From Anolis carolinensis (taxonomy: Eukaryota): a stretch of 64,000 nt of DNA. The position numbers were made by a program, and so were the translations under genes. Positions 27,801 to 55,800 of the stretch are shown here, one piece after another (the stretch's first letter is position 1; each line of letters opens with the position of its first letter). The notes under the pieces are model-generated. The model was given only the letters and a program-made list of their open reading frames with translations. It was not told the DNA's origin and did not search any database. Where the stretch lies: contig NC_085846.1 in assembly GCF_035594765.1 (NCBI RefSeq), forward strand, positions 18,029,190 to 18,093,189. The letters run 5' to 3'.

Positions 27801-30800
27801 ACCATCCTTGTGGGAGGCTTCTCTCATGTCCCCGCATGGGGCTGAAGCTGATAGAGGGAGCTCATCCGCGCTCTCCCCGGGTGGGATTCGAACCTGGCAG
27901 CTTGCAAATCAGCAGCCCAACCTTCAAGTCACAAGGCTTCAACCCACTACTCCACCGGGGGCTCCTACCCAAGTGGTGATGAAGCTGAGTTGTTGCAGTT
28001 CAAAGTCATCCATCAGACCAAATGGATGCAGTTGACAAGATTGCTCTTCCAATTGTCTATATTGATACGATTCCATGTTTTATTTTGTAATGTAGTGTTG
28101 TTGATGTAGTGTTGCTGATTAAGGTCTAGGATTATAAACTGAATAATTAAAATTTACCTCCAGTGAATCGAACCTTCTCCTGGCTGGCGTGCATTCCTAC
28201 ATGGGCTTCAACATTAAATGCTTCTATCTCAGCAAGCGTCCTCAGAACCCGGGATGTGGCCCAGCCAGGCAAAGTCAGGTTGTGAACTTTCTAAGAGAGA
28301 AGTGAGAGAAGAAACAGAACTTGGAAGAAGTTAGTGATCAATGACCAAAAAGATACTTTCCTAAACTGAAGAAAGATATATTGGAAAGTGGAGGTGTAAT
28401 GTGATGCAGTATTCCTACCTGACAGAAAAGGGAGTCGTGTACTCTCCAAAGACCCCGCAGAGTGAGCTGCTCCATTTTAAGTCCTGTGTAATTAGCCATC
28501 TCTCTTATGAAGCCCTGTGCAGGAGTAAAGGGTGAGAACCTAGATTAAGAAAAATAAACTTCAGTTGCTTAGTTTCAGTATCTTATTTGCATATGTTTAT
28601 CAAAAGAGTGATATTTCCATGTAAGTAGGTCAAACTCATAGGTGAAGCTCTTTAGTATAGCGGTGACAATGGTGACCTATCTATGGAATCAATTCCCTCA
28701 GATGTTCTGCCTGGCACTAACACATTTGGCATCTAAATGTCAGTTTACAATGTTATTTGTTTTTCCCGTATATAATAATATAAAAATCTATGTAGCTGGA
28801 GGTTCCATTAAGGTTATTGAAATGTACATACAAAGGCCTCTAGTGTTAATTATTGCTGATTTATTTTGTATCTACTATTGGTACTAATAACTTTCCTCTT
28901 TTAAAATGTGGTTTACCTATTTTAAAAATTATAATTGGGTCATTTGTTTAATGTTTTTTAATTGTAATTGATTAAATGGGAAGAGCAGTGCTAGGAACCT
29001 TCTCCTCCCCCCACTTCTTAATCTTCATACCTTCCAGCCTTCCATTTTAGCCTGATAACTTGGCAAATTAATTGTCTCTTCCATCAAATGTTGGTAGCGT
29101 TGGCAAGTCCGAGTTGGTGATTTCAGCAGCTGTGAGGACCAGTTTAGGGAAAACAGACAAAATCTGATTATAGGAAAAATCCAGTCCCTTGCTTCTCTCA
29201 GAGCTAAAGCATTAGGCAAAGTAGCCATACATTCTCCTTTGCATAGGGCAGTTTTCTATTTAAGGACTCCTCCTTTTCAGAAACGAGGAATGTGCAGCTC
29301 TCTACCATGCTAGCTCTCATCACTCCTTACAGTTGACTAGTTACGTAAGCTTGATAGATGATACAGCCCAAGGATATCAATACAATGGATTCAACTTAAT
29401 GATCCCAGGCAGTTGGCAATCCAGTGTAGGGCATGGGTGGTGGTGGTGGTGGGGGAGAATCCCATTTTACGCAGTCCAAGATTATTGCTTTCCATTATCT
29501 TACCTTATCATATTTAATAGGCACTGTATGGATAGGAACAGGACTCCAGCCAATCTCTGGATCCAAGTTTGAATAGAGTCCCATCAGGTTGGCTTGAGCA
29601 CTCATGAGGGTGCGGTCATAATCTGTGCTGCGAACATATATCTAAAATAGACATACCCATATTATTTATGGCTGCCATTAGGCCTCTTAACTTTGGACAT
29701 CTTCCTTAGGATATTTGCTTGATACCTTGCAGAGCACAAATGTTTTTAGTTTATGAAGCTCTTTATATAGTGTTTTGCTTGAATTTCTTTTTCTTCTTAA
29801 AAAAGAGCTCTCACTGATTCGGAGAACACATTTGGTTCTAATTATTGGAAGTTTTTAATATTTTGATCATCCCGTATTTTAGATTTGCATTACGGTGTTT
29901 ATATTTGTTTGTTGCCCTGGGAATTACTGAGCGCAAGTGATGTGAGTGTAATATATTAATACATAAGTATCAAATATTTACCTCTTGTGGTTTGTAGGCA
30001 GAACTCAAAAATCCATCGTATTTTTGCCTCAGAAACTTTCCAAGAGCCTTTTGTTGCAAAATACCTACCTACAAGGGCCAGAAACAGCAAGAATGAATGC
30101 CTGTTCTTCCTCTGCCTTACACAAACAGACACACAAAATGTGGACTTAAGAACATCCACCTCCTCTCCTCTCACACACACACAAGATCCCACCTTGGTGA
30201 GCTGCTGGAATCCCTCTGGCCAAGCGGCTGCTTTGTGGGGATCCGTTGGGTAGGTGCCAAGGGGGGATCGATCACCATGGCGATACACCTAAGACAGAAG
30301 GGGTTTCAAACTCAAGACAAAGAAAACTTTTCTGATCCACAATAATCCATCAAGGCTCTGTTTAGATGACACCATATTGTGCAATTGCTCAACCTCCGTA
30401 TGGGATCCAGATGACAGCATGCCTCAATTGGCAATCCTTCTGTGTTTTCCCACTGCTTCTTCCAGATTTTTTTCTTTCCATTAATGAAGAAGGAAAAGAC
30501 AGAACAGCCGGACAATATCATTCAAATGTTAATGCCAGAAGTTGTCCATCCTTGGAATCCTTCTCGACTTAAGATCACTTCTTAAACCTTACCTTCCTAA
30601 TGGGATTTATAAACTGTGAGCCTCTCTGAGTATATATGCCTTCAGGTTGCCTGTTGATCTATGGTGGCTTAATGAATTTCATAAAGTTTTCTGGTCACAG
30701 TACAAATTAACTCTTTATGCCACTGAACGGCTGTGAAAGTTTGAACATGACATGATGCCAACAGGCACTCCACCACCCATATGACTGCAATTGCAAAAGA

Positions 30801-35138: not shown

Positions 35139-38100
35139 ATGAAGCTGTTTAGCATCTTCATTGGCACCCTCTTTTTCATCGGAGCAGCAGGTCAGTATAT
35201 AGTCCCCAAATCTACTTACTGGTTTATTTGTGGGGGGAGTTGAGAGGGCCACATGAGCCAGCAGTTTGAGGATTGGATTATGATTAGGGACCAGGATTTG
35301 AATCCCCACTTGGCATGTAATTTTGGGCAAATCACATTCTCTTAACTCCATCTGAACAAAAAAAAAACTCCTTAAGACTGACATAAGTTGGAAATAACTT
35401 GAACGCACACAAGAACAAAGCAAATCCTGATGACTCTTCCTTCTCTCTCTTTGAGTGTTTCTACCTGCAAACGCCATGATTCTGCTGTTTTTGCTGAAGT
35501 GCTATGTGATAGCTGACAGCGGCAATATTTTGCTTCAGAATGTGTGCAGTTTTCCCCTTTGGAGGTTTGACTGGATGGCCATCTGTAAGGAGTGCTTTGG
35601 TTGTGTATCCCTGCATGACAGAATGGGATTGGACTGGATGGCCCATGTAATCTCTTCTGACTCTATGATTCTTTGGGTGAAGAGCGATTCTCATATAAAA
35701 TTTGTGGTGCAGAAAGTTTGTCCCTGCTTTAATCTATTGCATGTTAGAAGTGAAATAAGCATATTAAATTTCTCAAGATTGTATCTTGAACAGATTACTC
35801 ATTTTAAGCCAAACCACAAACCTGAAATTGCTATTTGTATTATATAGGTAGAAAATATGGATGAAATACACAGTTTACAGACATAGAATAGGACAAATAT
35901 GAGTTGATCAGTATCAATACTTTTTATTTTCTTTTATACATATAGCAGCATAACCTCTCTCCCTGACTCCCCACCATTATTGTATTTTCTTACTCAGAAT
36001 ACATGAAGACACACATATAGTACTTTATACTTTTGAACTGTCCTGATTTGGCAGGGACCATCAGATTAATGCTCTGCTATTCTATTTTTTTTCTATCTGC
36101 CTTTTAAAACACCCTACTTTCTTTTCCTCCTCTCTTTTCCCCTTCATCCTGCAAATCAAGTTCAAAGTTTTTTAACTGTGCCAGAAGCAACTTGAGAACA
36201 TACTGCAAGTCACTTCTAGTGTGAGAGAATTGGCTGTCTACAGAGATATTGCCCAGGGGATGCCCAGATGTGTTGCCATCCTGCTGGGCGGCTTCTCTCA
36301 TGTCCCCGCAAGGTAGAGCTTGCAGATTTGAACCGGCAACCTTCAGGACAGCAAACCAACTTTCAGGACAGCAAACCAACCTTCAGGTCAGCAATTCAGC
36401 CGGCATAACAATTTAACCCATTGAGCCACTGTGGCTCAAGTTCAAAGTGAAATGCACTTAACTTGCTCAGCACAAGGAGAGACAGAATTTTAACCTTTTC
36501 AGTGAATTCAGATGCAAATAAATTGCCTTTCCTACGTTGTGTATTTTTCCCTAAATTAATAACTGTTTAATGTTTATCTCTTCCCCTGCCCCTTGATAGT
36601 CTTGATATCATTTTATCCTAATTTCTTCTTTTACAGGATCTGCTGATGACATCTTTGATCTCTCTGATGCCTTAACTCCTGTTGATCCTCCTCAGATTAA
36701 CCCAGAAAAAGATCGTAAGTCAGGGTTGGGGATAAGACAGAGAGTTAGGGAATACTGAATGTTGTTATTACCTGAGTGAGAAATGGTAGGGAGAAAAATA
36801 TTATTGTGACTCAAAAACTAAATTGGTGAACCTTTAAAATTGGATCCGTTCAATGTGCTGGTTTAAATGGAAATTCACCCAGTTACAATCCTGGACTAGT
36901 CATTACAGAACTGTTGCAAGTATAAAACCAGGACAGAAAACCACAAATGCTACCTTGAGTTACAGTACTTAGAAAGAAGGTGGAATATGTATGTCATAAA
37001 TGTACTAATCAATAAGTAGCCATATATTTATAGTCCTAGCAGTTTCTGTAAGTGGGATATGTTTTGGTTATGTTGTGCAGGATATTGTAAACAAATTTCT
37101 TTTAAACGTAGAGTATTCATAGGTCAAATGAATGAAGTCAAACTGGGGTGCATTTACTGGGTAGAATTAATTCAGTTGGACACCACTTGAACTGCCACGA
37201 CTCAATGCTATGGAATCACTGGAGTTGTAGTTTGGTGAGGCACCAGCACTCTTTAGCAGAGAAGGCTAAAGACCTTGTACAACTAAATCTCCCATGATCC
37301 CATAGCGTTTAATCATTACAGTTAAAGTGGTGCCAAACTGCTTTAATTCAACAGTGCAGATGCACCCCCCCCCCCCAGTTGTCCTTTTCATTCAGGCATA
37401 CTCTGGGTAATGGACTGACATCGATGAAAGTACTTTGCTGCTGCCCTTTTTTACAAATGTATTGTAGGTCATGTTTAATTCAACTGTGCAGTAATATTGT
37501 AATGTGTTTAATTTCATTTAAGTATTATAACCCCTTGTATTTCTACATGTGCTTGTTTTTAATCTTTTTTTGTGAGCTGCCTTGGAACAAAGGCAAGATG
37601 TAAATCAAGTAAATGAAATTATTTAAGACTGAAGCTTGAGCAAGAAGTTGTGGTTACAGCTCAGCAGCTTGCCTCAGGCAAGTCATTCCAACGGTATTCC
37701 CGTATGGAGGGCTCCAGACCCTTATATGTTACAAGGCAACTATAACTGTGAATTTTACTCCTTAACAGTTTGTACCCAATACAAAATACAAAAGAAGTTG
37801 TGGGAATGGAAGGAAGAATTGTGAGTGGAAGATAATCTGGTGTGAGTGTGGCTGAAATGCCCTAAAGGCACTATAGCCTATTTGATCTTGTAAAGTAAGA
37901 AGGATTGGTTCTAGTTAGTACACTGGGCACATTTGCTTGGGTTAGGGCAGGCATGGGCAAACTTCGGCCCTCCAGGTGTTTTGGACTTCAACACCCACCA
38001 TTCCTAACAGCCGAAAGGCTGTTAGGAATGGTGGGAGTTGAAGTTCAAAACACCTGGAGGGCTGAAGTTTGCCCATGCCTAGGTTAGAGACACAATACTA

Positions 38101-41100
38101 CCCCAAGATGGAAAAAAAAATCCAGTGTTTAACCTGCAAGAACACTTCACTATGGGTGCATCTACTTCTACACTGTAGAAGTAAAGCATTTGACCTCACT
38201 TTAAGTGCCTTGGCTCAATACTATGAAATCCTGGGAGTTGTAGTTTTGAAACTTCCTTAGTCTTTTCTGCCAAAGGGTACTTGTGTCTCATCCCACTACA
38301 AATAACCTTAAAGAGTTAATATTAAGCTTACAACCAAGTGACAAGTCTGTGAAGTGCTTTGAACACGAGAAAGTGCTATATAATTTGCAAAGGATTTTGA
38401 AAAAATGTGTAAAAATAGATATTTCCAGTCTATGTCACACTCACATCCTATGCTTACATGTTGGTAACTCAGGGTTGATGCTAAGAAAAAGTAATAAAGA
38501 TAGTTATGTTTAGAAACCGAAACAAAGTTTCTCAGAAAGGTTATAACAATTCCATTCCCAGAAGTGTTCCTATTTAGTATTTTACTTTATTAACCAATTT
38601 CTTACAAAATCAGAAATTTTCCAACAGCGGGGTTCAAAAACAGGAACAGGAGTCGAAGAGTTTAAGAAATAAGTGGAAAAATTGCACTAAGTCTAGTATG
38701 TTGTTTTTTTCCAGGTTAGGCCAGAGTATTGTGCATGTTCTTAGAGACAGATATTTCCTTGTTTACATTATGTAACAAAATTTGAAAGATTTACTGTTCT
38801 TGGTTTGGAAGTGTTATTTTCTGTTTCATTGTATGGTGCTTCCTTTGAAAGTACTGTAGTTGTCATACTCCAGAAACTTCATTTTTGTGGCTGCCACAAA
38901 CTAGGTTGAATTGGTTGAGACTTTATGAGATACAGTAGTCTCACTTATCCAAACTTCACTTATCCAAGGTTCTGTATTATCCAAGGCAGTCTGCCTTTTA
39001 GTAGTCATTGTTTTTGTAGTAAATGTTGCAATATTTTGGTGCTAAATTTGTAAATACAGTAATTACTACATAGCATTACTGCGTATTGAACTACTTTTTC
39101 TGTCAAATTTGTTGTATAGCATGATGTTTTGGTGCTTAATTTGTAAAATCATAACCTAATTTGATGTTTAATAGGCTTTTCCTTAATCCCTCCTTATTAT
39201 CCAATATATTCGCTTATCCAACATTCTGCCGGCCCGTTTATGTTGGATAAGTGAGACTCTACTGCAGGGGTCCTCAACCCTTCAGACTGTGGAGGGGCCA
39301 AATTATCATTTGAAAAAAAAAAACCAAAAAAACGAACAAATACCTATGCACACTGCACATGTCTTATTTGTAGTGCAAAACAACAACAACAATGAAAGAA
39401 CAATACAATATTTAAAAATGAAAACAATTGTAACCAACATAAACCTATCAGGATTTCAATGGGAAGTGTGCTGAGCCACAAAATCCAAAGGGTGACCTTG
39501 GGCATGTCACACTATCTCAGCCTCAGGAGAAAGCAATGGCAAGCATCTTCAAAACAAATCTTGCCAAGAGAACCCTACAACGTGCAAGAACTGTGTTGAG
39601 AAAACCTCGTACTGAAGATTGGCTCATACTGAACCCTAACAAGCTTAAGACTCTTAGCAACAGAAGGGAATGGTTTTTCTTTGGAATAGATGACTCCACT
39701 TTGCTTCTTTCTTACCCACGCAGAGTGTCCCAATGAAGCTCGTGACATTGTCTTCCTGCTTGATGGCTCAACCAGCGTCCGTCCCTCAGATTTCATTGAA
39801 ATGAAAGCTTTTATTGCTCTCATGATGAAAAGATTCCCTGAGAATACACATGTGAGTAAGGAATGATTCACAACAGAGAGTGGGGTTGGGTGGGATATGA
39901 ATTTTCATAGTCTCTAAACAGAGCTGTCCCGATGCATCTTGCTGGTTCAGGTGAAGACAAAAATGGCTTCTTGCCTGCTTTTTCCATTCCATGTGTAGCG
40001 GTTAAAATTGAATATCTTTTCTCATGACTGTTGTGCAAGAAAGGCTGAGGTGTGATGTCACCTCTCCAGGCTGGTTTCTAAGACCTTGAAGCAAGTTATT
40101 ATTATTATTATCTGCATCAGTTAATGCAGTTTCAAACCATTTCAACTGCCATGGCTCACCGTTTGGGGATATTTGGATTTGTAGTTTCATGAGCCACCAG
40201 TAGTCTTTGACCAAGAAGACTAAAGACCTTGCAAAACTACAAATCTCATGATTCTATAGCATTGGGCCATAAATTGGTGCCAAACTGCGTTTATTCTCTA
40301 CTGTAGATGCACTCACAGTCCCACTTTATAATACCTAGACTTCTTGGTGATAAGATGGTATATTCATTAACATTTTAAAATATGGCTTCTTATATAAGAT
40401 GCCAGCTGCAACTCCTGAGTTTCCATAGCATTAAGTTGTGACAATTAAATTGGTATCAAGTCTACAGTGTGGAGGCACCCGAAGTTGGAAATTGATGGGA
40501 AACACCAGAAAGGCCAGTGTCCTGTTATTCAGTTTGATGTTGACCAGTTCATGTGGCAGGGTTGGTGGTAATCTTGATGGAGACAAAGGAACCATATATT
40601 AATGCACGAATATGTGATAACCAGATCTAAAATATGATGGATATACAGTACTATAATCCAAAAATGATGTAAGGGAACAACAACTAATGTCATCTATGAA
40701 ATGGATGCCTTAGTTGCAGACGATATCCAGAAGCATTTTCTCTTCCAGCATAGCACTGTTGCTTAAACAAAGAAGGAAATATGAATGTTCATAGAAGTGC
40801 CAAGGCACAGTTTCCCCAATTAATCTTTCTGGGTCTTCTTCAGTTCGCTCTCCTACAGTTCTCCAGCCACTTTCAAGAACATTTTGACTTTAGACATTTC
40901 CAGAGAAATCGCGATCCTGACCATCTGATGAGAGAAGTGAATCAGCTGAGAGGCTCCTCATACACAGCCACTGGGATCAGGAAAGCCACGTGGGTATCTT
41001 GCTACCATTCCTCTTTTTATATAGTGGCATTGGTAGTGGGATGAGGAGGGTGCAGGTTGTACCAGGTGATAGTATGATGGAGTGAAACCAATTATGGTGT

Positions 41101-44011
41101 TTGGGAAAGAAGTGGGCAAAATAGGAAAGCAAGCAGCTGGGCTTGCTCCCTTGGAAGGCTGGTGGGGAAAGTCCTGTTCTTCTCCTCTTTCTGGATTTCT
41201 TTACAAGGATTCAACTCTACTCCCTCCTTTGTGTGTCCTGAAGTCCTTCCCCTTCTTTACCACCCATTTACATATTTTCTTGCTTCACACCTTGTCCTTC
41301 GTCAGTCCCCTCTTTTCTTTAAACAACAGATATTTTAAAGAAACTTCCTCTCATATACTGACTGAACTGAAGTTTGGTAGTCTCCTATATTATAGCCACT
41401 CTACCACTGTTGCTGTTTCCTTGCAGCTAATCCTCCTTTTCTCTTCTCTCTACTGCTTAAAAGGGAGCTATTCACCACACAGAAAGGTGCCCGAGCTACA
41501 GCCAAGAGGTTCCTTGTGGTGGTGACGGATGGGGAGAAATTTGGGGACATGTTGGAGTATGCAGAGGTTATAGAGGAAGCCAACAGAGCTAAAATTACAC
41601 GCTTTGCCATTGGGGTAAGGAGCAACGTACTTACCTATGTTTATTTATTTAATTACCTACACATTTTTGTCCTGCGTAGTTGGAATAAATGTCACATCAG
41701 GACGTAAAACTAAGCACTGGGCTGCTTGTTTGAAATCCATCTTTTCCTTTAACGCTTACGGCTTTCACCTCCAAACATGTTGCTTTTCTTCTGGCAGGTT
41801 GGCATAGTTTTCACAAGCAGAGTTGCCCAGAGGGAGCTCCACAGCATTGGCTCTCATCCTGTTCCAGATCACGTCTTTGTTGTGAGGCACTTCACCGGCC
41901 TCCGGGACATCCAGACCCAGCTGAAAGAGAAGATTTGTGCCAATCACGGTACCAGAATTTAGGAGCTGGGGAAGGCAGCAAAGCAGCAGAAAATTTAAGA
42001 ACTTGGGAAAGGGTCAGCCAACTAGTTGCCCAAACCCTGTCTGAATAAAGAAGGGTTTGCCTGTTGACAAAAGAGTAAAGGAGGTTAGCACTGGGGGGCT
42101 TCTACATGGTAGAATTAATGTGGCATGACACCACCTTAACTACCATGGCTCAATGTTATGGAATTTTGGAGTAGTAGTTTGGTGAGACACCAGCACCATT
42201 TGTAAGAGACAATTCCCACAATTCCATAGAATTAAGCCATAGCAATTAAAGTGATGTCAAACTGCACTAATTCTACAGTGTAGATGCACCCTTGATCTCT
42301 TGTCAAAGTGGTTTCATAGCCTGAGTATAATCCACCAGCAAAGTTTTTTATAGGGCTCTCATGAAACATGCTTCTGAGGATGGTAGGGCTAAGGTTTTAT
42401 CTACACTGCCATACAAAATCCACATTATCTGCTTTGAACTGGATTATATGAGTCTACACTGCCATATAATCCAGTTCAAAGCAGATAATCTGGATTTTAT
42501 GTGGCAGCGTAGAAGGGGCCTAAGAGAAAGACTTCTCTTGGAGAGCTGAAAATTCAGGCTGGATCTACCCTGCCCTTTATCTCAGGATTGGATCCTGGAT
42601 TATCTGGCAGTGTAGACTCATATAATTCAGTTCAAAGAAGATAATCTGGCATCAGATCCTGGGAAAAAGAGCAGCATAGATCCAGCCTCAGAGAGGGTTA
42701 ATATGGGAGTAAATAAGCCTTTCAAAAAGTCTGCATGGAAGCAGTAAACCTTGTAAATCATTGCCAGCAACTTGAATTGTGCTAAGACTAGTACCTGGTG
42801 AAAATGTCAGTGCACAAGGTTTCTGTCCTTCCCTGCCTCACTCAGCAGTCTTTCTGAAATATGTATTAGGCATCTTCCCCAAATCAGGATTGTAATGGCT
42901 GTAATTCATAATTTCCTCTGTTCAAGACACAATTGCCTGGCACTTATGAAATGGTGGCAGCTTTATGTGGGTGAATTGTAGAATGACACCACATAGTTCA
43001 GTACTATGCTTTGCAAGGCTTTTTCTGCAGCGTTCTTTGCCAGAAAACACAGATGACTCACCAAATTACAAATCCCAGGATTTCATTGCATTGAATCCTG
43101 GTAATTAAGGTGATGTCAAACTGCATTCATTCTACAGTGTAAAGCAGGCATGGGCAAACTTAGGCCCTCCCGGTGTTTTGGACTTCAACTCCCACAATTC
43201 CTAACAGCCTCAGGCCCCCTCCTTTCCCAGCTGCGGGGGGAAGGGGGGGAGGGAGGAAGGGGCCTGGGGCTGTTAGGAATTGTGGGAGTTGAAGTCCAAA
43301 ACACCAGGAGGGCCTAAGTTTGCCCATGTCTGGTGTAAAGGCACCCTCAGTCTTCAGTAGTCACATCCACATAGGTAATTATCACTAGGGCTTTAAGGCA
43401 GACTTGGGGTGGCATCTTCCAGAAAATGGGGGGTCTAAAACAATAAATTTTCTAGACTCTGTTAGAGGTTAGGGAACAGGATAGCCAAGTCTAAAATCTG
43501 AAAGAATGTCATATTGAGGAAGGGGCAAGTTTGTTTTCTGCTGCTGTGGAGCTTATGACCCCATTTATACTGTCCATTTAATGCAGTTTCAAACCAGTGT
43601 TGGAAGGTTTTGCTGTGGAGATAATTACACAGGAGATCCTGGAACTAGTTTGAGACCCGGATGGCGATTACACAAACCACAGAGCACTGATGCATATTAA
43701 GGACTTCCTTTTGCACATTTTTGTGGGAGTCTATTGTCCGGCCGCTGTAGTTTGAAGTTAGCTTTGAGTTGCATAAAATGGACAGTGCAGATGGGGCTGG
43801 TAGCAACAAAATAATAACTTCTGTTCTGTGTCTTTCAGGCGTCAGGGTGCCACACACAACAAGAGCACCGTCAGCCTCACCGGGCACCTGCCCCAAGCCT
43901 GATGCTCAGGTGCTGCACAAACTGGAGCAAGTGCTGCATAGCCTGGATCAAGTCAAAACCAAGCTGGATTTCCTGGAGGCTAAACAAGGGAAATGTGGAC
44001 AAAGGCCCTAG
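35139..44011 (+). CDS. Predicted secreted integrin alphaM/X-like I-domain (vWA) protein with N-terminal CD99-like exon and C-terminal coiled coil, 7 exons, 292 aa
   Basis: Exons 35139-35190, 36637-36714, 39724-39851, 40844-40989, 41464-41614, 41798-41948, 43839-44011. All are GT-AG and phase-compatible; total 879 nt including stop. Protein: MKLFSIFIGTLFFIGAAG-SADDIFDLSDALTPVDPPQINPEKD-QCPNEARDIVFLLDGSTSVRPSDFIEMKAFIALMMKRFPENTH-FALLQFSSHFQEHFDFRHFQRNRDPDHLMREVNQLRGSSYTATGIRKAT-ELFTTQKGARATAKRFLVVVTDGEKFGDMLEYAEVIEEANRAKITRFAIG-VGIVFTSRVAQRELHSIGSHPVPDHVFVVRHFTGLRDIQTQLKEKICANHG-VRVPHTTRAPSASPGTCPKPDAQVLHKLEQVLHSLDQVKTKLDFLEAKQGKCGQRP*. The I-domain motifs (DGSxS, TATGIRK, TDGEKFGD, DHVF, QLxEKI) match ITGAM/ITGAX as I recall them. 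AATAAA at 44392 and 44420. Confidence 0.85.
36172..36436 (-). mobile_element. Anolis-type SINE, degenerate
   Basis: Homologous to the copies at 9091 and 27687. Confidence 0.7.
38933..39264. mobile_element. Tc1/Mariner-type MITE
   Basis: TIRs CAGTAG(AG)TCTCACTTATCCAA / TTGGATAAGTGAGACTCTACTG, preceded by TA. Confidence 0.75.
43145..43332. mobile_element. Short hAT MITE (palindromic)
   Basis: TIR CAGGCATGGGCAAACTT; TSD GTGTAAAG. Confidence 0.85.
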
Positions 44012-44644
44012 CATGTGTCCAATGCAGATAGAGTGATCTACAGCAGGAGGCAAGCGGTGGAGGGGGAAATGTGAGAATCTCAAAGAAAGGAGATGAGAAG
44101 TGGTAAGATAGAGGGTGCATCCACATTGTAGAATGAATACAGTTTGACACCACTTTAACTGCTATGCATTAATGCTATGGAATCTTGGAAGCTGAATTTT
44201 TGGTAAGGCACCAGCATTCTTTGACGGAGAAGGCTAAAACCTTGGAAAACTACAAACCCCAGAATTTCATAGCATTAAGCCATGGCAGTTAAAGTGGTGT
44301 CAACACTATAGATGCACCCTTTCCCCCATTTTGTATGCCAACACTATTTGACAGTTGGGTGGTTTATACATTCAGTTTTAACGTGGCCTCTAATAAAAAT
44401 GCTGAACGATTTCGAAACCAATAAAGCCACCTGTTTTCTGGTTTTGCTTCTGCTTTATTTTAACTAGCAACAATCGATTCCACATCTGTGCCCTGTAAGC
44501 TGTTTTGAGCTTTACTTGCTTGAAAACTCAGAATCACAGTCTACCTACACTGTAGAATTAATATAGTTTGATACCTCATTTCCACAAGAAGTGGAAAAGG
44601 GGAGAAATCACCAAAGAAAAATTCAAGTGAATAACCAACTCCTG

Positions 44645-45982
44645 TAGGGAAAAATTTTGCAAGGCTAAAGCGCACAATGAGCTCAGGTTTGCCAGGGAAA
44701 TTAAAAACAATAAAAAGGGTTTCTTTGCTTACATCGGTAGAAAAGGGAAGAACAACGATAAGGCCTCTGTGAGGAGAAATGGGGTGATGGTGGCAGGGGA
44801 TAGGAAAAAGGCAGAACTACTTGATGCCTCCTTTGCCTCAGTCTTCTCACAAAAAGAAAGTCGTCTTTAACAGCAACATGAAGTGGACAAAGGATTAGGG
44901 GAAATCCAACCCCAGATAGGGAAACAAGTCATCCAGGAATACTTGGCTGCTCTAAACGAATTCAAGTCCCTGGAGCCAGATCAACTACATCCAGGAGTAT
45001 TGAAGCAACTAGCAGAAGTCATTTCAGAACCACTGGCAATCATCTTTGAGAGTCCCAGCAGACTGGAGGAGGGCGAATGTGGTCCCTATCTTCAAGAAGG
45101 GGAAAAAGGATGAACCAAAACAATTACCATCCGGTCAGCCTCACGTTGATACCAGGTAAGATTCTGGAAAAGATCCTTAAGGAAGTGGTCTGCAAACATT
45201 TAGAAACAATTGCAGTCATCGCTAATAGTCAACACAGATTTATCAAAAACAAGCCATGCCAGACTAATCTGATCTCTTTTTTCGATAGAGTTACAAGATG
45301 GGTAGACACAGGGAACGCCGCGGATGCAGCATATCCAGATTTCAGTAAGGCCTTTGACAAGGTCCCCCATGTTGTTCTTGTTGTTTATTCATTCAGTCAC
45401 TTCCAACTCTTCGTGACCTCATGGGCCAGTCTACGCCAGAGCTCCCTGTCCGCCGCCACCTCCAGCTCCTTCAAGGTCAAGACACTCACTTCAAGGATAC
45501 CATCCATCCATCTGGCCCTTGGTCGGCCCCTCTTCCCTTTTCCTTCCATTTCCCCCAGTATCAGTATCTTCTCCAAGCTTTCCTGTCTTCTCATGATGTG
45601 GCCAAAGTACTTCATCTTTGCCTCTAATATCCTTCCCGCCACTGAGCAGCCAGGCATTATTTCCTGGAGTGTGGACTGGTTTGATCTTCCTTCGGTCCAA
45701 GGCACTCTCAGAATTTTCCTCCAGCACCACAGTTCAAAAGCATCTATCTTCCTTTGCTCAGCCTTCCTTATGGTCCAGCTCTCGCATCCATAGGTTACTA
45801 TGGGGAATACCATACTCTTAACAAACTAGTCAAATGTGAGCTAGGCAAAACTATGGTTAGGTGGATCTGTAACTGGCTAAGTGAACGAGCCCAAAGAGTG
45901 CTCACCAATGCATCTTCTTCATCCTGGAAATAAATGAGGAGTGGAGTGCCATCAGCAGGGTGCTGTCCTGGGCCCAGTTCTG
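44645..45982 (+). mobile_element. CR1 LINE ORF2 (RT) fragment interrupted by an antisense RTE insertion
   Basis: NYHPVSLTLIPGKILEKI..SQH.F..KPCQTNLISFFD..DFSKAFDKVPH; CR1 sequence resumes after about 45813. Confidence 0.85.
45371..45812 (-). mobile_element. RTE-BovB LINE 3' end
   Basis: ORF 45397-45813 VFPIVTYGCESWTIRKAE.RKIDAFELWCWR...GRPRARWMDGI, with a (CAA)-type tail. Confidence 0.9.
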
Positions 45983-46810: not shown

Positions 46811-49800
46811 TGGGGAGCGGTCAGAGGTCACAGTTAGGGTTAGGGTGTTGGAGTTGGGTGGGTAACTAGGGGTGCATCTATGAATGCAGTTGGACATTAC
46901 TTTAGCAGTGCTGTTGCATCATGGGAGTTGTAGTTTGGGGAGGCAACAACTCTGGCAAAAGGTGGCTAAATAACTTGTAAAACTACAAGTCCCATGATGC
47001 TATCAGTTAAAGAGACATCAAACTGCAGTTTATAGAGTTAAAAGGTTTAAGAGCCGGGAAGTCATAGGGTTGAAAGTCTTTAGATTTGGGTTGGGGATGA
47101 GGGATTCATAGGGTTAAAAATATTTTGGTTTATAGCAGTACTTCTCAACCTATGGGTCTCCAGATGCTTTGGCTTCAACTCCCAGAAATCCTAACAGATG
47201 GTAAACTGGCTGGGATTTTTGGGAGTTGTAGGCCAAAACACCTGGGGACCCACAGGTTGAGAACCACTGGTAGGGTTAAACGTCTTTAGTTGTAGGTTGG
47301 GTTAAAAGTCTTTTGGTTTATAGAATTAAATGTCTTTAGGTTTGGGTTGGGGATGAGAGATGTATAGGATTAAAAGTATTTTGGTTTGGATTAAATGTTT
47401 TTAGGTTTGGGTTGGGATGAGGGATTTATAGGTTAAAGTCTTTTGGTGTATAGGGTTAAACATCTCTAGGTTTGGGTTGGGGATCAGGGATTTATAGGGT
47501 TAAAAGTCTTGGTGCATAGGGTTAAATGTCTAGGTTTGGGGTTAGGCATGAGAGATTTAGAGGATTAAAAGTCTAGGTTTAGGGTTTGGGACAAGGGATT
47601 TATAGGTTAAAAGTCTTTTGGTGTATAGGGTTAAACGTCTTAAGGTTTGGGTTGAGGATCAGGGATTTATAGGGTTAAAAGACTTGGTGCATAGGGTTAA
47701 ACGTCTAAGTTTGGGGTTAAGAATGAGGGATTTATAGGGTTAAAAGTAGATTTAGGGGTTGGGTCTAGGGATTTATAGGTTCAAAGTCTGAGTATAGGGC
47801 TAAACATCTTTAGGTTTGGGTTGGGGATCAGGGATTTATAGGGTTAAAACTCTTTAGGTTTGGGAGTCGGGGATTTATGCTATAAGGTTGAAAGTCTTTA
47901 GATTTAGGGGTTGGGGATGAGATATTTATGGGGTCAAAAGTTTTGAGGTTTAGGATTTGGAACTAGGGATTTATAGGTTAAAGTCTTTTGGTTTATAGAG
48001 TTTAACATCTTTAGGTTTGGGTTGGGGATTAGGAAGTTATAATGTTTAAAATCTTATAGGGTTAAAGTCTTTAAGTATATAAGAATTAAGTCTTTATGTT
48101 TGGGTTGGGGTGAGGGATTTATAGGGTTAAAAGTCTAGGTTTAGGGATTGGGTCTAGAGATTTATAGGTTAAAAGTCTTTTGGTTTGTAGGGTTAAACGT
48201 CTTTAGGTTTGGGTTGGAGATGAGGAATAAATGTTTTCATGCTTAATGTTTTATTGTTATGCTATTGGTTCATATAGTTTTTTAATTATTTAATTTATGA
48301 ATATTTTAATATGTTTACATGGATGTGAGGCATTGAATCTTTGCCATGTATAATGCTGTACATCACTTTGAGTCCCCCTAGGGGTGAGAAAAGCAGTCTA
48401 TAAATGAATTAAATAAATAACAAATAAATAGGTTTGGGTTGGGGATGAGGGATTTATAGGGTTAAAGTTTTTAGGTTTAGGGATTGTGATACATGCAAAT
48501 GGAAACATGAATGGTCCTGGGTTCGGATCTTGCTTCATTCAGATTCCTTGGGGCTTAATCTTGGGGATCGGAAGTTTGCAGGGTTAAAACACTAACAGTC
48601 GGAAGGCAAGGTTGAGTAGGTCTTGAGTTTGAATCTAGATCTATTCAGATTTCTTGTCTTTTCCCACCCCTTTCCCAGACCCTGAAAAGGTGCTGGATGT
48701 GGGTGCCCAACTGCCCTCAAACGCAGACCCCGAAGACACCATCCAAAGCCTGCAGGCACAGCTGGCGGCTGCTTTGACGGAGGTAGAGACGGTTCGGACC
48801 GTGGCCACTGTGAGCGAAGGCACCAAGCAGGAAGCAGTGGAGGCTGTCCGTCGCCAATGGCAAGAGGAAGTGGCCTCTCTTCAAGCCATCTTGAAAGGTA
48901 CAGCCACCTTGACTCTCAAGGGAATGCATCTGCACTGTTGAATTAATCCACTTTGACCTCGCTTTAACTGCCACAACTCAGTGCTGTGATACCATATCAT
49001 GGGAGTTGTAGCTTGACAAGGCTCTTCTCTGCCAAAGAGTACTCTTGTCTCACTAAACCACAAATCCTAAGAATCCATAGCATTGAGCAGCTAAAGTGGT
49101 GTTGAACTGCATTTATTCTACAGTGTAGATCAGGCACCTTCAAACTGCAGCCCTCCAGCTGTTTGGGCCTCCAATTCCCATAATTCCTGACCATTCAACA
49201 AGCTGGATAAGACTTCTGGGAGTTGGGGGCCCAAACAACTGGAGTTTGAGGGTGCCTGGTGTAGATTTGTCCAGGTGGAAACAATGGTTAAACTGTCTCA
49301 AATTGAGGGTTAGAACCAGGATTCTGGTCTCCTGTATAGTACATTCTCAGGTAACTGGAACTCTCAAGCAACCAGCAAAAATGGAAGAAATAATACTTTA
49401 AATAAAAAATTACAATAAAATCAGTTTTTAATACAGTAAATCTGTGTTATATTAAATTAAGATTAATGCCTTAATTTGTTTTTAGTATTTCAATATTAAT
49501 ATCAAGTCAATATAGTGTGATATGGTATATTTTGCGGTATAATATTAGACTTATTTTAAATAGTAACTTAAGCAATCACAAACTACTAAGCATCTAGGTT
49601 GCTGTGAGTTTTCCGGGCTGTATGGTCATGTTCCAGAAGCATTCTCTCCTGATGTTTTGCCCCTGTCTATGTCAGCCATCCTCAAAGGTTGCCTGCCATA
49701 GATGTGGGCAAAACATCAGGAGAGAATGCTTCTGGAACATGGCCATACAGCCCGGAAAACTCACAGCAGCCCAGTGATTCTGGCCATGGAAGCCTTCGAC

Positions 49801-52800
49801 AACATACTAAGCATCTACTAACCCCTATGGGTGTTGCTTAACTGGGAGTCTATTTGTTTCCTTAAGTTTTGACTTCCTCAACAGACACGATCTCCAGCTA
49901 CGAGGCTCGCCTTTCCGCTTTGGAGCGGAGCAGCCGAGAAAATGCCTGGAGCCGCCTGTTGCCGCGGTCCAACCCCTTGGATTCCTTAGAGAAACAGATG
50001 GAAAAGGTAAACTAGTGGACAAACAGGAGGCTTTGGGAGGTGCCAAGTTCAGGTCTGCATACAGACTCTGGCATTTCCTTCCTCACTGCAGGCCCAAGAG
50101 GACACTCAGCGGCTCCGGGCCATTGTGCTTCCAATGGAACAGGAAATTGCGGAGTTGAAAGCAAAGTTAGCTCGCGCCGAAGGCCTGGTTCAGGAGTTGC
50201 AGAGCGAGCAGGTAAGATGCAGAGAAGCGGAAAAGCAAGAAGAGGGAATAGGATGGAGGGGAGGCTTGAATCAGTTCGGAACAGGAAAAAGGAGAAAAGA
50301 AGTAATCTCCTGTGTAACATGTCTGCGGTTGTTTTAAAGAATGAAAAGATTGTGCCAGGAGAAATCTAGTGCCGCAAGCCTGTACCTGGATGCAGTAGTT
50401 GTTTTTCTGTGCCAGTAGGTGCCTGGCATTGCAAATTAGCAAACGAAATGAAGGTTGCAATTACACTAGAATTAATGCAGCTTGACACCACTTTAAATGT
50501 CGTGGCTCAATTTATTTTATATACCATACTTGTATCTTGCCTTTCTCAACCCCGAAGGGGACTCAAGGCAGCCTTATAAAGGCAACATTTCATTGCCGCA
50601 TGTATACATACATCAATGAATAAACAAAAACATTAAAGACAACCAATTAAAGCATAACATTAAAACAAGAATTAAAATAACAATCCTGTGATTTCAATGC
50701 TGTGAAATCATGGGGTTTTTACTTTTGCAAGGTCTTTAGCTTTCTCTGCCAAAGAGTGCTGGTGCCTAACCAAACTACAACTCTCACAGTCCTATAGCAT
50801 TGAACTATGGCAGTTAAAGTGGTATCAACATGCATTATTATACAATGTGTTCTCAGAGGCTTTCATGGTCAGAATCACTGAGTTGCTGTGAGCTTTCTGA
50901 GCTGTATGGCCATGTTCCAGAAGCATTCTCACCTGAGACAAGTGGAGTTTATATATGTGAATGTTGCAGTTGGCCACCTTGATTAGCATTGAATAGCCTT
51001 GCAGCTTCAAAGCCTGGCTTCTTCCTGCCTGGGGGAATCCTTGGAAGGTGCAATGCTAATCAAGGTGGCCAACTGCAACATTCACACTTGCCTCAAACAG
51101 ACAAGAGTTCTTTCTCCCACTCTGGTCATTCCACAGATATATAAACCCCACTAGCCTAGTTTCCAACAGACCTCACAACCTCTGAGGATGCCTGCCATAG
51201 ATGTGGGTGAAATGTCAGGAGAGTATGCTTCTGGAACATGACCATACAGCCCAGAAAACTCACAGCAACCCATTAATCTTACAGTTTAGATGCACCCTAA
51301 GTAACTTGGCTTGTGAATGATGTTTGAGCAAAGGCGGGACAAGCTAGCTTTTGCTGGATTGCTCCAAACCTCAAATGAGATATTGGAGTAAAGGAGGTAT
51401 GAAGTGCAAATTAGAGGTTTGATGTTAGCCAGCTCAAAATTCCATGGCCAAGATACCAAGTCTTTCTTTGAACTCCTAGTAATACCTGCCCTGGCAACCC
51501 AGATACCACACTCCCATTCAATATTGAGATTTTTCTCTGTAGTAGCAATTTTTTTAGACTTTGGGAACACAGACAGGACAACTCCAGGAATGTCTCAGAA
51601 TAATTTGGCCATAGCAGCCTGGGGGATTCTGGGAGCTGTAGTTCAAATAAGTAGTGGCTAAATGAGCTCTTCTGTTTGAGGACATTCTAGTTCTGCATGT
51701 ATTTATATGTGCCTTTAAGTTGTCGCCATGAGTTTTACAGGGTTTTCTTAGACACATTTTCTTAGACACACTGTAGAATTAATGCAGTTTGATAACTTAG
51801 AATCATAGAAGAATAGGGTTGGAAGTCACCATATGGCCCATCTAGTCCAACCTCCTGCCATGCAAGAAAAGCACAATCAAAGCACCCCCGACAGATGGCC
51901 ATCCAGGCCTCTGTTTAAAAGCTTCTAAGGAAGAAGTCTCCACCACACTCCGAGGCAGAGAGTTCTACTGTTGAACAGTTCATACAGGCAGGAAGTTCTT
52001 CCTAAAGTTGAGGTGGAATCTCCTTTCCTGTAATTTGAACTTATTGCTCAGAGTCCTAGTCCTTTCACATATTTATACATGGCTATCACTTCTCCTCTCA
52101 ATCCTCTCTTCTGCAGGATAAGTATATCCAGTCCTTTAAGATGCTCGTCATAGAACATGGTCTCCAGAACTCTGATCATTTTAGTTGCCCTCCTCTGGAC
52201 ACCTTCTAGATTGTTAATATCTCTTTTAAACTGTGTTGCCCAGAACTGGACGCAGTATCCCAGATGAGGTCTAACCAAAGCAGAATAGAGAAGCACCATG
52301 ACTTCCTTCAATCTAGACACTATACCCTTTTGATACAGCCCAAAATCCTATTGGCTTTTTAAGCTGCTGCATCACACTGTTGGATCATGTTCAACTTGTC
52401 GTCCATGAAGATTCCAATTTAAGAGCCACGGCTCAGTGGTAAAGAATAATAGGAACAGGAGTTTTGCAAAGTGTTTATCCTTTTTTGCCAAAGAATCCTG
52501 ATGCCCCACCAAACTACAAATCCCAGAATTTCCTACCATTGAGCCATTGTGTCAGAGTGTATTAATTCTGAAGTGTAGTTCTACTCTAAGAGGCCCAGAT
52601 TCACTCTGCTCCCCATGTAATCCAAAGTACTTTTCCCAGTTCTTTCCTCTGAAAGATCAGCTATAATATCTTGTATTCATTTGTCTCCCATCCAGATACT
52701 AACCAGAGCTGCTTAGCTTCCATGATCAGACAGGATCTTATGCTTTTATGATATTTTGCTCTGTGGGGTTTCCTTATTTATCCTTTTTCCTTTCTTCAGC

Positions 52801-55800
52801 GTTCCTTAGGTAGCTCCTCTGAATCCTTGCTGGCTGATGCCGACGTTGTGCCCTCTGATTCAACTCCAGATGACCACATTACTTTGGGAGAAGGAGGGGT
52901 GGCTGATAAATTTGCACGGGGCCTTGACAGTGTATCCATTGCCTCCATTCCTTCCTTGGCCCCGAGTCCAGGGCCTCCAATCCGACGCCGGTTTGCCCCT
53001 AGCCCTGAGACTGTATCCATTGCTTCTTCCACTGGGACCCTGGTGCCAGAGACCATCTACCTGCCACCCGCTGGGTATCAGCTGGTGCCTGCAGCAGAAT
53101 GGACACAGCTGCATGAAAAGGTGTGTGCATACACATGTATGTAGAGTAGAGTGTGCTGAATAGTGTGGATAGATGAGAATTGCAGCTAATTGGGCTTTAT
53201 GCCTGAGAACATGCCTTCTGTACTTTGCTGGGCAATTCACTTGGCAAGTCCGGTTCTTTTCAGATCAAGTTTCCTCTATAATCTGTCAGAGCTTAGAAGC
53301 AGTATGTATGGATCAGAGATGGTTTCCCAACTGTAGTTGTATCATTCCGTTACTTGTAAAAAGAGTTTTTAGTATAAAACAATGAACACAGAGTTTAAAA
53401 GGCAGATTTGTTCATAGGACAGCACTAAGGAAAATTATAAACATTGTATGCTTTTGTATCAGCTTAAAATGCCTCTTACCAGATCCAATAGCACAGACCC
53501 CGTGGAAGTATTTGGTTAAGAAAACTCATGTTTTATTGGCTTGACTGCAGTTCCCTTAAACTATGAATATGATCAAACACCATTACATTTTCTAACTTCC
53601 AGTCCCAACATACTGTAAAGTATTCCTAGGAATTTACTAGGGTCTCCAGGGAAACTTAGTAGTATCCTCCTTGGAAGCTTATCATAAAATCATTTAAGGA
53701 TCTGGCAAATTCTTAGGCCCTACCTACATGATATGATACCGTTTCATAATGCTGTTTAACTGCATTAAACTGCATTATATGGCAAAGTGGACTTAGACAA
53801 TGCAATTCAATGCAGAGAAACTGCATTATGAAACATTTTTGAAGTATAATTTTGGACAATTCTCAGAATCCCTCAGCTGGCATGATCAGTGGCCTTGCTG
53901 GCTGAAAAATTCTTCCTACTTTTGGGCTCTGCATTTGCAAGCTGGTGGTGGGGATGCAAGGGAGTAGTTCCCTTCTGGAGTATTCTGAAGTAGAAGATAA
54001 ATTAAAAGCTGGGGCTAGGATGAAGGATAGTGGGCACTAAACTTCTCTCTTCCTCTTTGACATTTATGACAGTGTTGGAATTGTAAATCAACAAGTAACT
54101 TTTTTTAAATCCCAACTTCTTGTCCTTACTGTCCTTGACTCTCTTCTCCCAGGTCCAGCAGCAACATGAGGCTCTGGAAGCAGCAGCGCAGGAAAAGGCC
54201 AGCCTGGAGGAGGCACTGAGACGTAGCAATGATGAATGTAGCAAGCAGGTTTGCCCTCTTTCTCTGCCCCATGCCAGTTGGTGATAGTCGGGTAATAATA
54301 AAAAGGTTATATGTGTTGTTGAAGGCTTTCATGGCTGGAATCACTGGGTTGCTGTGAGTTTTCTGGGCTGTATGGCCATGTTCCAGAAGCATTCGCTCCT
54401 GATGTTTCGCCCACATTTATGGCAGGCATCCTCAGAGGTTTTGAGGTCTGTTAGAAACTAGGAAAGTGGGGTTTATAGATTTGTGGAACGTCCAGGGTGG
54501 GAGAAAGTACTCTTGTCTGTTTGAGGCAAGTGTGAATGCTGCAATTGTCCATCTTGATTAGCTGTGGACATCTCTACATAAGAACCACGAAACGCAGCAT
54601 TGCCCAAACACAAATCAAGGAACATGAAAGTGCTCAACCAGAGAAGTCAGCCATAGCAAAGCATTTGATGAACCAACCTGGACAGAGCATATTATTTGAG
54701 AACACAGAAATGCTGGACTACTCTAACAACCACAATGTCAGACTACACAGAAGCCACTGAAATCCACAAGCATGTGGACAATTTCAACAGAAAGGAGGAA
54801 AGTATGAAAATGAACAAAATCTGGCTACCAGTATTTTGAAAAACTCTAAAATCAGGACAGTAAATAAAGAACAACACTCAGAAAATAGAGGAATTTCAGA
54901 CATGAAACAATCAGGGTCGGCTAACACCTCCTGACAAATAATTCCCCCAGGCAGAACGCAACCAGGCTTTGAAGCTGCAATGCCATTCAGTGCTAATCAA
55001 GATGGCCAATTGGAACATTCGCACTTGCCTCAAACGGACAAATAGTTCTTTCTCCCCTGGACATTCCATAGATACCCTGTTCCCCCGAAAATAAGACATT
55101 TTCAGAAAATAAGACCTAGTAGAGGTTTTGCTGAATTGCTAAATATAAGGCCTCCTCCAAATGTAAGACCTAGAAAAGTTTGGAAGCATGCCTGCTGAAC
55201 AGAACACCAGAGCATGCAGGATTGGTAAATGTACGTACCATAGATTGATGTACAGTAGAGTTCCGGTTATCCGTATTCCGGTTAATCAACACTCCCTCTC
55301 CTTCTCTTGAGTTCCTTCCTAGGGCAGCCCAGGGAAGGGAGCTCAATGGAAGAAGAGGGAGAGAGAGGAGGTAGCGCCCTGTGAGCGTTGCTAGGCAGCA
55401 GCAATCACGGGGCGCTTCCTGGAGCCGAGAAATGCTCCCCGGGTTTCCTTCAGCCAGGCCATTGCTGGAGGAAGGAAACTCTTTCCTCCAGCAAGAGCCT
55501 GGCCAAGGGAAACCCGGGGTGGGCTCCCGTTTCTCCAAAGGCCAGGCCCTTGCCAGGCTGGGCCCTGGTGCTGCCGGAACCTGGTGTGGTGAAGGAGCTG
55601 AGGGATGGAGGCGGGCAAGCAAAGGAGGGCGGCAAAGTCCCTTCCTCACTCACTGGTTCTCTCACTCACTCACTCACCCCACCACGTCTCCGTGCTGCCG
55701 TTGCCGCTGCTGGGATCTGGCCTGGTAAGTGAGCGAGGGAGGGAGGGCGAGCAAGCACCCACCCTGTTCTCCGTCAGTTTCGCTTATCTGTCATTCTGCC

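Follow-up and report, generated by a model that had tools for sequence, protein, structure and literature searches.

A squamate gene family with a standalone integrin alphaM/X/D-type I domain, a putative vWA-type disulfide and a predicted coiled-coil tail

Introduction

The I domain of integrins alphaM, alphaX and alphaD (CR3/CR4) is a von Willebrand factor type A (vWA) domain whose MIDAS (metal ion-dependent adhesion site) is complete with D140, S142, S144, T209 and D242 (PMC8118671), and a relay Glu after its helix alpha7 ligates the MIDAS of the beta subunit (PMC5054827). Engineered disulfides on helix alpha7 (D132C/K315C, Q163C/Q309C) can set the affinity of the alphaM I domain (PMC9876370), and the vWA domain of ANTXR2 has an N-to-C disulfide (C39-C218), yet binds through its MIDAS at 170 pM (PMC4773787). 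Here we describe a gene of Anolis carolinensis, on the forward strand of a 64,000-nucleotide stretch of contig NC_085846.1 (positions 18,029,190 to 18,093,189; hereafter the window), that is an intact, spliced squamate gene for a standalone alphaM/X/D-type I domain, with no integrin propeller exons in the window and no membrane anchor. A Cys45-Cys232 disulfide very probably closes the domain, the product, with a predicted coiled-coil tail, is probably a secreted oligomer, and we lean towards a main job as a soluble, multi-headed, CR3-like binding protein working by avidity.

This product, the chimera, shares with alphaM/X/D integrins the fold (root-mean-square deviation, rmsd, of about 1 Å), the split of the domain over four exons, C128, I316 and most MIDAS residues, but it has no propeller, legs, anchor or relay Glu, carries Cys in place of F317 and adds its own signal exon and coiled coil. 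Matrilins likewise combine a signal, vWA with Cys in the same register and a C-terminal coiled coil flanked by Cys, whereas the chimera has a domain that is integrin-derived by the tree described below, a single vWA, no epidermal growth factor (EGF) repeat and a coil without detected sequence link, a likeness that speaks of convergence. The ends of vWF A1 and A3 superpose on our chimera model at 17-22% identity, although the parent proteins differ; vWF A1 is not known to have a working MIDAS. With the CD99 family (CD99, CD99L2, XG) the chimera shares an acidic FDLSDAL near the mature N-terminus on a short phase 1-1 exon, but this is a single motif, with no transmembrane or cytoplasmic part and no PF12301, and homology is likely rather than proven. 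The C39-C218 staple of ANTXR2 (PMC4773787) is a counterpart of the putative one described here. The chimera would also be a natural, conserved counterpart of the engineered disulfide-locked alphaM I domains, its Cys standing one residue earlier (317) than in the C128-C318 mutant. It is like a matrilin built from a CR3/CR4 domain and, by the features tested, falls outside the integrin alpha, matrilin and CD99 families.

An intact, spliced gene with an integrin-type I domain

Seven forward-strand exons join into a single open frame of 292 residues within window positions 35139-44011. The I-domain exon at 41798-41948, on which an earlier note made from the DNA letters had centred, is the sixth. 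The product is identical at 292 of 292 residues to the anole RefSeq protein (P0005) named 'integrin alpha-M'. The features of the gene are as follows.

35139..35190, forward: exon 1, coding part; start codon, hydrophobic signal-peptide-like stretch (residues 1-17), phase 1 end; joint to exon 2 in runs X14 and X1
36637..36714, forward: exon 2, phase 1-1, 78 nucleotides; acidic DDIFDLSDAL like CD99-family exons, then a variable linker
39724..39851, forward: exon 3, I-domain part 1; Cys45 codon at 39726-39728, equivalent to alphaM C128; MIDAS DGSTS
40844..40989, forward: exon 4, I-domain part 2; MIDAS loop 2; Ser125 codon at 40958-40960, equivalent to alphaM T209
41464..41614, forward: exon 5, I-domain part 3; TDGE Asp157, equivalent to alphaM D242
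41798..41948, forward: exon 6, I-domain part 4 with helix alpha7; Ile231; phase 1 end; AG before and GT after
41936-41938 and 41945-41947, forward: key codons of exon 6, Cys232 (alphaM F317) and His235 (alphaM E320)
43839..44011, forward: exon 7, coding part; Pro/Ser/Thr hinge, Cys253, heptad coiled coil (residues 257-288), Cys288, stop
44012..44425, forward: 3' untranslated region; AATAAA at 44392 and 44420; A run after 44425 in one X1 contig

Contigs of run X14 (a single one of 1226 bases) and of run X1 lack all six introns, removed at the GT..AG sites, and five of the six joints are listed for run X8, which comes from a third study. Spliced joints thus came from three of eight runs, which were taken as RNA by guess, none being recorded as RNA; the others (X9, X11, X13, X24 and X20) list none, which is no evidence of absence.

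The only signal-like hydrophobic stretch of the product is its N-terminus (the best 19-residue window after residue 20 scored 1.1 and lay inside the domain), and the hydrophobicity scan found no membrane anchor in the 292 residues; we infer that the protein would be secreted. The leg domains and transmembrane helix of an integrin alpha subunit are absent from this spliced product, in which Pfam detected vWA families only, with no EGF, PF10393 or PF12301. No propeller exons were found in the window, where tblastn with seven full-length integrins matched the four I-domain exons and two weak strays (E 0.018 and 0.031). The mature chain has four Cys (45, 232, 253 and 288), against two in the earlier note, and no N-glycosylation site.

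The domain is of alphaM/X/D type by sequence, exon structure and fold. AlphaM/X/D I domains were its best matches in sequence and in fold. It aligned with human alphaM at E 2e-53 (HMMER), with Ile231, Cys232 and His235 falling ungapped on I316, F317 and E320, and its identity was about 49% to alphaM in structural alignments and 26-27% to matrilin. A genome search with exon 5 found three places, the chimera gene and two alphaM/X/D-like integrin genes about 5.6 Mb away (G000:C6:12.44 and 12.50 Mb, L016-L019), which have opposite orientations and retain propeller exons, Thr209 and an unaltered KIFAIEG. Both have the same four-exon I-domain split as the chimera; in one anole integrin the intron after the exon 6 counterpart opens, as in the chimera, with GTACCAG, and the F317 codon is TTT in one of them versus TGT in the chimera, one base apart. 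We propose that a beta2-integrin alpha gene may have been the source of the four I-domain exons, which form a phase 1-to-phase 1 module and would have been copied at the DNA level. Before the split of geckos from other squamates, this module would have come to lie with a CD99-like 5' part on one side and a coiled-coil exon on the other.

A squamate-wide family

Of 25 matches in a full-length search, 23 were squamate proteins of like architecture; a fish integrin and a matrilin made up the remainder. The family set comprises 24 rows including P0005, from 22 named species (geckos, skinks, a cordylid, a lacertid, an amphisbaenian, anguimorphs, iguanians and snakes); four rows are without the N-terminal part and one is without the middle part. 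A tree of 42 domains placed all 17 family rows that it included in one clade (support 99/100) on a long stem (0.65), seven of the 24 rows (five partial or exon-skipped records and two snakes) having been left out. Inside this clade geckos branched first, then skink and cordylid, then the rest, matching the known order of squamates, whose crown dates back about 190-200 million years. Across 22 rows, pairwise identity averaged 66% for the I domain, 69% for the coil, 69% for the acidic motif, 30% for the linker and 45% for the hinge. Full-architecture matches came from squamates only, in a search that did not extend to tuatara, dibamid, turtle and bird genomes.

Family members are named integrin alpha-M/X/D-like in the database, where some records are partial or fused to RABEP2 (P0003, P0026, P0118). 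Such names and records would suit a decaying fragment or a mis-annotated piece of an integrin, but the open frame, full splicing, poly-A and orthologues from 22 named species, whose I domains are on average 66% identical, argue otherwise, as do the absence from the window of any other integrin exon at a convincing E and the two intact integrin genes elsewhere in the genome. The spliced transcript contigs and the family-wide conservation refute this possibility, to which we give next to no credence; the earlier note had favoured selection over decay, and the spliced open frame and the single clade of squamate-wide orthologues bear this out. No description of the family was found in the open literature searched, six accession numbers included, a search that did not extend to subscription journals and supplements; the family could stand under the name of an integrin in tables of venom-gland or plasma proteomes.

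In herring-family fish the same domain appears to have become free independently. Proteins of Sardina (P0058, P0060) and Alosa (P0061, P0034) have repeated integrin-like I domains, apparently with no propeller. The relay residue is Gln in three of these four proteins, and position 317 has no Cys.

Loss of the relay Glu and a cysteine pair in the vWA register

The residues from which the earlier note had argued, namely the QLKEKICANHG end, the (Q)CPNEARD start (its Q codon divided between exons 2 and 3), the intact DGSTS and TDGE and a loop-2 Ser for Thr, are all present in the alignment to alphaM. The relay Glu was found in 18/18 integrin rows versus 0/24 family rows, in which the residue is His (20), Arg (3) or Gln (1). 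The proposal that a change from Glu to His reflects loss of the CD18 partner thus held for the missing Glu, but His itself is not selected or required: since Arg or Gln takes its place in 4/24, position 235 is better described as a loss of Glu than as a gain of His. With no beta subunit the relay Glu would be free to drift, and judging from the alignment its loss fits life without CD18.

Conservation of the new Cys in orthologues, a check suggested in the earlier note, was complete: Cys232, like Ile231 before it, was kept in 24/24 family rows, and Cys45 in 20/20 rows that reach it. Its register also agreed with the proposed N-to-C disulfide of vWA domains. Matrilin C453 aligns with Cys232, and with alphaM 317. 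A Cys at the F317 place occurred in 0/27 integrin-like domains versus 380/462 other vWA domains (99/123 with one per protein), as counted with a Phe-bearing, end-trimmed turtle integrin query over non-family proteins, 489 of 555 matches being long enough; these proteins had been collected with P0001 as query, and tandem-vWA proteins abound among them. An earlier count (359/377; 182/185) was set aside because its Cys-bearing query was biased. Cys232 is therefore a return to the common vWA state and new only among integrins, so that its presentation as a novelty needs this restriction. A Cys six residues ahead of the strand-A Asp, the spacing of Cys45, was the commonest spacing (139/420).

Consistently with this register, VIA-align laid model residues 41-236 over vWF A1 1268-1462 (Z 23.8, rmsd 2.6, 187 aligned) and residues 45-233 over vWF A3 922-1110 (Z 26.4, rmsd 1.7, 181 aligned). 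These alignments give end points only; provided that the ends are ungapped, residues 45 and 232 fall on A1 1272 and 1458. The disulfide cysteines of vWF are taken to be 1272/1458 (A1) and 923/1109 (A3), numbers for which a literature search found no paper. The pair is in register with disulfide-closed extracellular vWA domains, before strand A and at the end of helix alpha7.

In integrins a propeller Cys pairs with C128. A CGP...C...C motif was found by pattern search in the preceding propeller exon of 14/18 integrin rows and was seen in both anole integrin genes; the chimera gene does not have this exon. The propeller partner of C128 would have been left behind when the domain was freed, orphaning Cys45, and the Phe-to-Cys change would supply a new partner where other vWA domains carry their closing Cys. 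A different pairing of Cys232, with Cys253 or with another chain, is conceivable in a mature chain with four Cys and a flexible hinge (residues 240-255, predicted local distance difference test, pLDDT, below 50). We judge it quite improbable: Paroedura, without Cys253, and Hemicordylus, without Cys288, both retain Cys45 and Cys232, the register is that of the common vWA staple, and 253 and 288 lie in the interface of the modelled four-chain coil, within which they likely join chains. A Cys45-Cys232 bond is what the sequences favour, with high confidence.

A domain likely closed at rest, with a largely retained MIDAS

A structure model built with 44 sequences had a mean pLDDT of 80.7 (94-98 over residues 51-230) and superseded an earlier one (mean 62.7). 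Its top fold match was 1MF7, presumably the closed C128-C318 alphaM mutant. It lay 0.9-1.0 Å from the closed alphaM/alphaX domains 1JLM/1NA5 and 2.5-2.9 Å from the open 1IDO/4M76/7AKK; 1JLM is described as inactive and 1IDO as active (PMC6955338). Loss of the socket isoleucine opens an I domain (PMC11853025). This residue is the invariant Ile231 of the family, and family-specific residues 47, 49, 50, 82, 84 and 228 adjoin, in sequence, the two Cys or the socket. Phe occupies alphaM positions 236 and 267, which we take to be socket residues, in 19 and 21 of 22 family rows. With an unvarying Ile in the socket and Phe at two further socket positions, the modelled domain is likely closed at rest. 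The earlier claim that the staple would fix the affinity state goes too far: stapled ANTXR2 still binds via its MIDAS (PMC4773787) and the prediction may lean closed, so that a 'locked' domain is unproven.

Four of the five MIDAS residues of the anole protein are identical to those of alphaM, T209 being Ser. Across the family, D140 is kept in 21/23 non-gap rows, S142 in 23/23, S144 in 20/22 (Thr in 2) and D242 in 21/24. Of 22 well-modelled rows, 17 have Ser at the T209 place, and the five with Thr come from geckos, skinks and a cordylid; since these lineages retain Thr, the Ser is a later change within squamates. In P0019 (Hemicordylus), P0023 (Tiliqua) and P0022 (Crotalus) a MIDAS Asp is replaced and the staple Cys are kept wherever the record covers them.

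These substitutions, together with T209 to Ser in most rows, would suit a vestigial MIDAS. In that case the closed, stapled domain would bind by a different surface, in the manner of vWF A1, and a second binding site would be provided by the acidic CD99-like motif. Conserved family-specific residues off the MIDAS (His200 in 21/22, Arg215 in 20/22, Arg50 in 19/19) point the same way, as does the mean identity of the acidic motif, 69% versus 30% for the linker. However, D-x-S-x-S and the TDG Asp are retained in most species (21/24), Ser preserves the hydroxyl of T209, and odd residues in single records may be sequence errors; we consider MIDAS-independent binding doubtful, and prefer a binding protein of CR3 type.

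A CD99-like exon and a self-associating tail

FDLSDAL is a motif of the human CD99 N-terminal peptide (PMC13604740), and it or a close variant was present in 20/20 family rows having the N-terminus, in the well-conserved segment that adjoins the variable linker. A genome pattern search for the acidic motif gave 23 matches (self and 22 others) versus 5 for a control, at least two of the non-self matches lying in CD99-family loci. Four anole CD99-family exons share the plan of exon 2 (phase 1-1, split codon, a few residues, acidic motif), and an exon 2 profile run over 197 kb ranked CD99-family exons next after self (E 0.008 and 0.08). Exons 1-2 had no Atlas match, and an exon-1 profile gave nothing notable in the loci compared. 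PMC12109474, PMC5867880 and PMC10302478 brought nothing further on a CD99-family origin of exon 2. We regard such an origin as likely.

The anole CD99-family loci themselves (L007-L015) comprise two tandem genes at G000:C3:107.58-107.62 Mb and one at C14:24.42-24.43 Mb, with short phase 1-1 acidic-motif exons.

Exon 7 encodes a predicted helix (258-287) in which heptad positions 260, 261, 264, 267, 268, 271, 274, 278 and 281 are hydrophobic in 24/24 rows. Complex prediction with four copies of residues 246-292 scored 0.67, against 0.02 for the best of three controls, and gave a parallel bundle with run contacts agreeing at at least 90%, pLDDT of at least 69, and 253 and 288 in the interface. 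In a two-copy calibration of this score, 21/30 solved self-pairs and 0/23 single chains passed in a mostly microbial set, and 17/29 and 0/30 for eukaryotes. Self-association of the tail is thus supported by modelling, and the coiled coil would supply avidity, offsetting a weak affinity of single heads. As to its origin, neither an own-genome paralogue nor a Pfam match or Atlas hit was found, which is not evidence of absence. Seven snake rows have an extra Cys that gives CxxC ahead of the coiled coil and would allow ring-like interchain links.

Signal, vWA and Cys-flanked coiled coil make up the matrilin plan (P0028), and the staple in matrilin register and the CxxC of the snake rows add to the resemblance, so that a matrilin-like adaptor of the extracellular matrix, reached by convergence, in which several vWA heads cross-link matrix proteins, was considered. 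This is unlikely in our estimate, given the far closer identity to alphaM than to matrilin, the integrin exon borders and the lack of EGF repeats, and a soluble CR3-like protein remains the preferred reading.

Neighbouring sequences in the window

A RABEP2-like gene (Pfam Rabaptin) occupies window positions 48639-60096 on the forward strand; in the pit-viper record P0118 (RABEP2-like) the family's I-domain exons are joined to RABEP2. This is probably a fusion made in annotation, and it suggests that the two genes are arranged alike in snakes. On the reverse strand, facing away from the chimera gene, an exon at about 30190-30288 has an RHGDRSP motif, presumably the histidine acid phosphatase signature, with no Pfam match at E 0.01. 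Overlapping reverse transcriptase fragments of the long interspersed nuclear element (LINE) type lie just downstream of the chimera gene (45050-45825; Pfam RVT_1, weak). A Pfam scan of 251 open frames of at least 52 residues in window positions 1-35000 found no convincing family.

Discussion

If the chimera is the soluble, CR3-like, avidity-driven binding protein that we favour, a first guess at its ligands, by descent, would be the acidic-residue ligands of CR3/CR4 (C3 fragments, fibrinogen, microbial proteins). More tentatively, three-way exon shuffling may have joined a CD99 N-terminus, a CR3/CR4 I domain with a re-evolved vWA disulfide and a tetramer-forming coil into a four-headed opsonin, decoy or bridge, which would bind C3-coated or microbial targets through its I domains while the acidic tips engage cell surfaces or neighbouring MIDAS. 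No secreted innate-immune integrin derivative of this kind was found in the open literature searched. The CD99-like exon, the coiled coil and the squamate-wide family were not covered by the earlier note.

Several points weigh against parts of this reading. The model blocks that contain the two Cys have a mean pLDDT of 78 (Cys45) and 69 (Cys232), and AlphaFold may favour the closed state because it has memorised solved I domains. Conservation of the MIDAS is not strict (Lys, Ala or Gly replaces Asp157 in 3/24, Asp57 is His in Hemicordylus and Ser61 is Thr in two rows), so that metal-dependent binding may be dispensable in some lineages, and these losses would tell against a strictly MIDAS-dependent job. 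The CD99 likeness amounts to 7-10 residues and an exon phase, with a profile test biased by loci chosen as CD99-family, and a word-limited database search with residues 1-43 returned five candidates, two of them family members, and no CD99 match. The parent integrin is not singled out, the tree leaving open a fork for a sister integrin. Lastly, the four-copy score leaves the chain number unfixed, coiled coils pass easily and one stoichiometry was modelled.

This one gene shows how a receptor domain could be refitted for free life, with the relay residue lost, an orphan Cys putatively re-paired at the ancestral position, and avidity added. Labelled 'integrin alpha-M-like', a clade-wide chimeric gene can mislead both tallies of integrins in reptiles and work on CD11b expression. 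The family also provides a candidate, open to testing, for a soluble immune or matrix protein specific to squamates.

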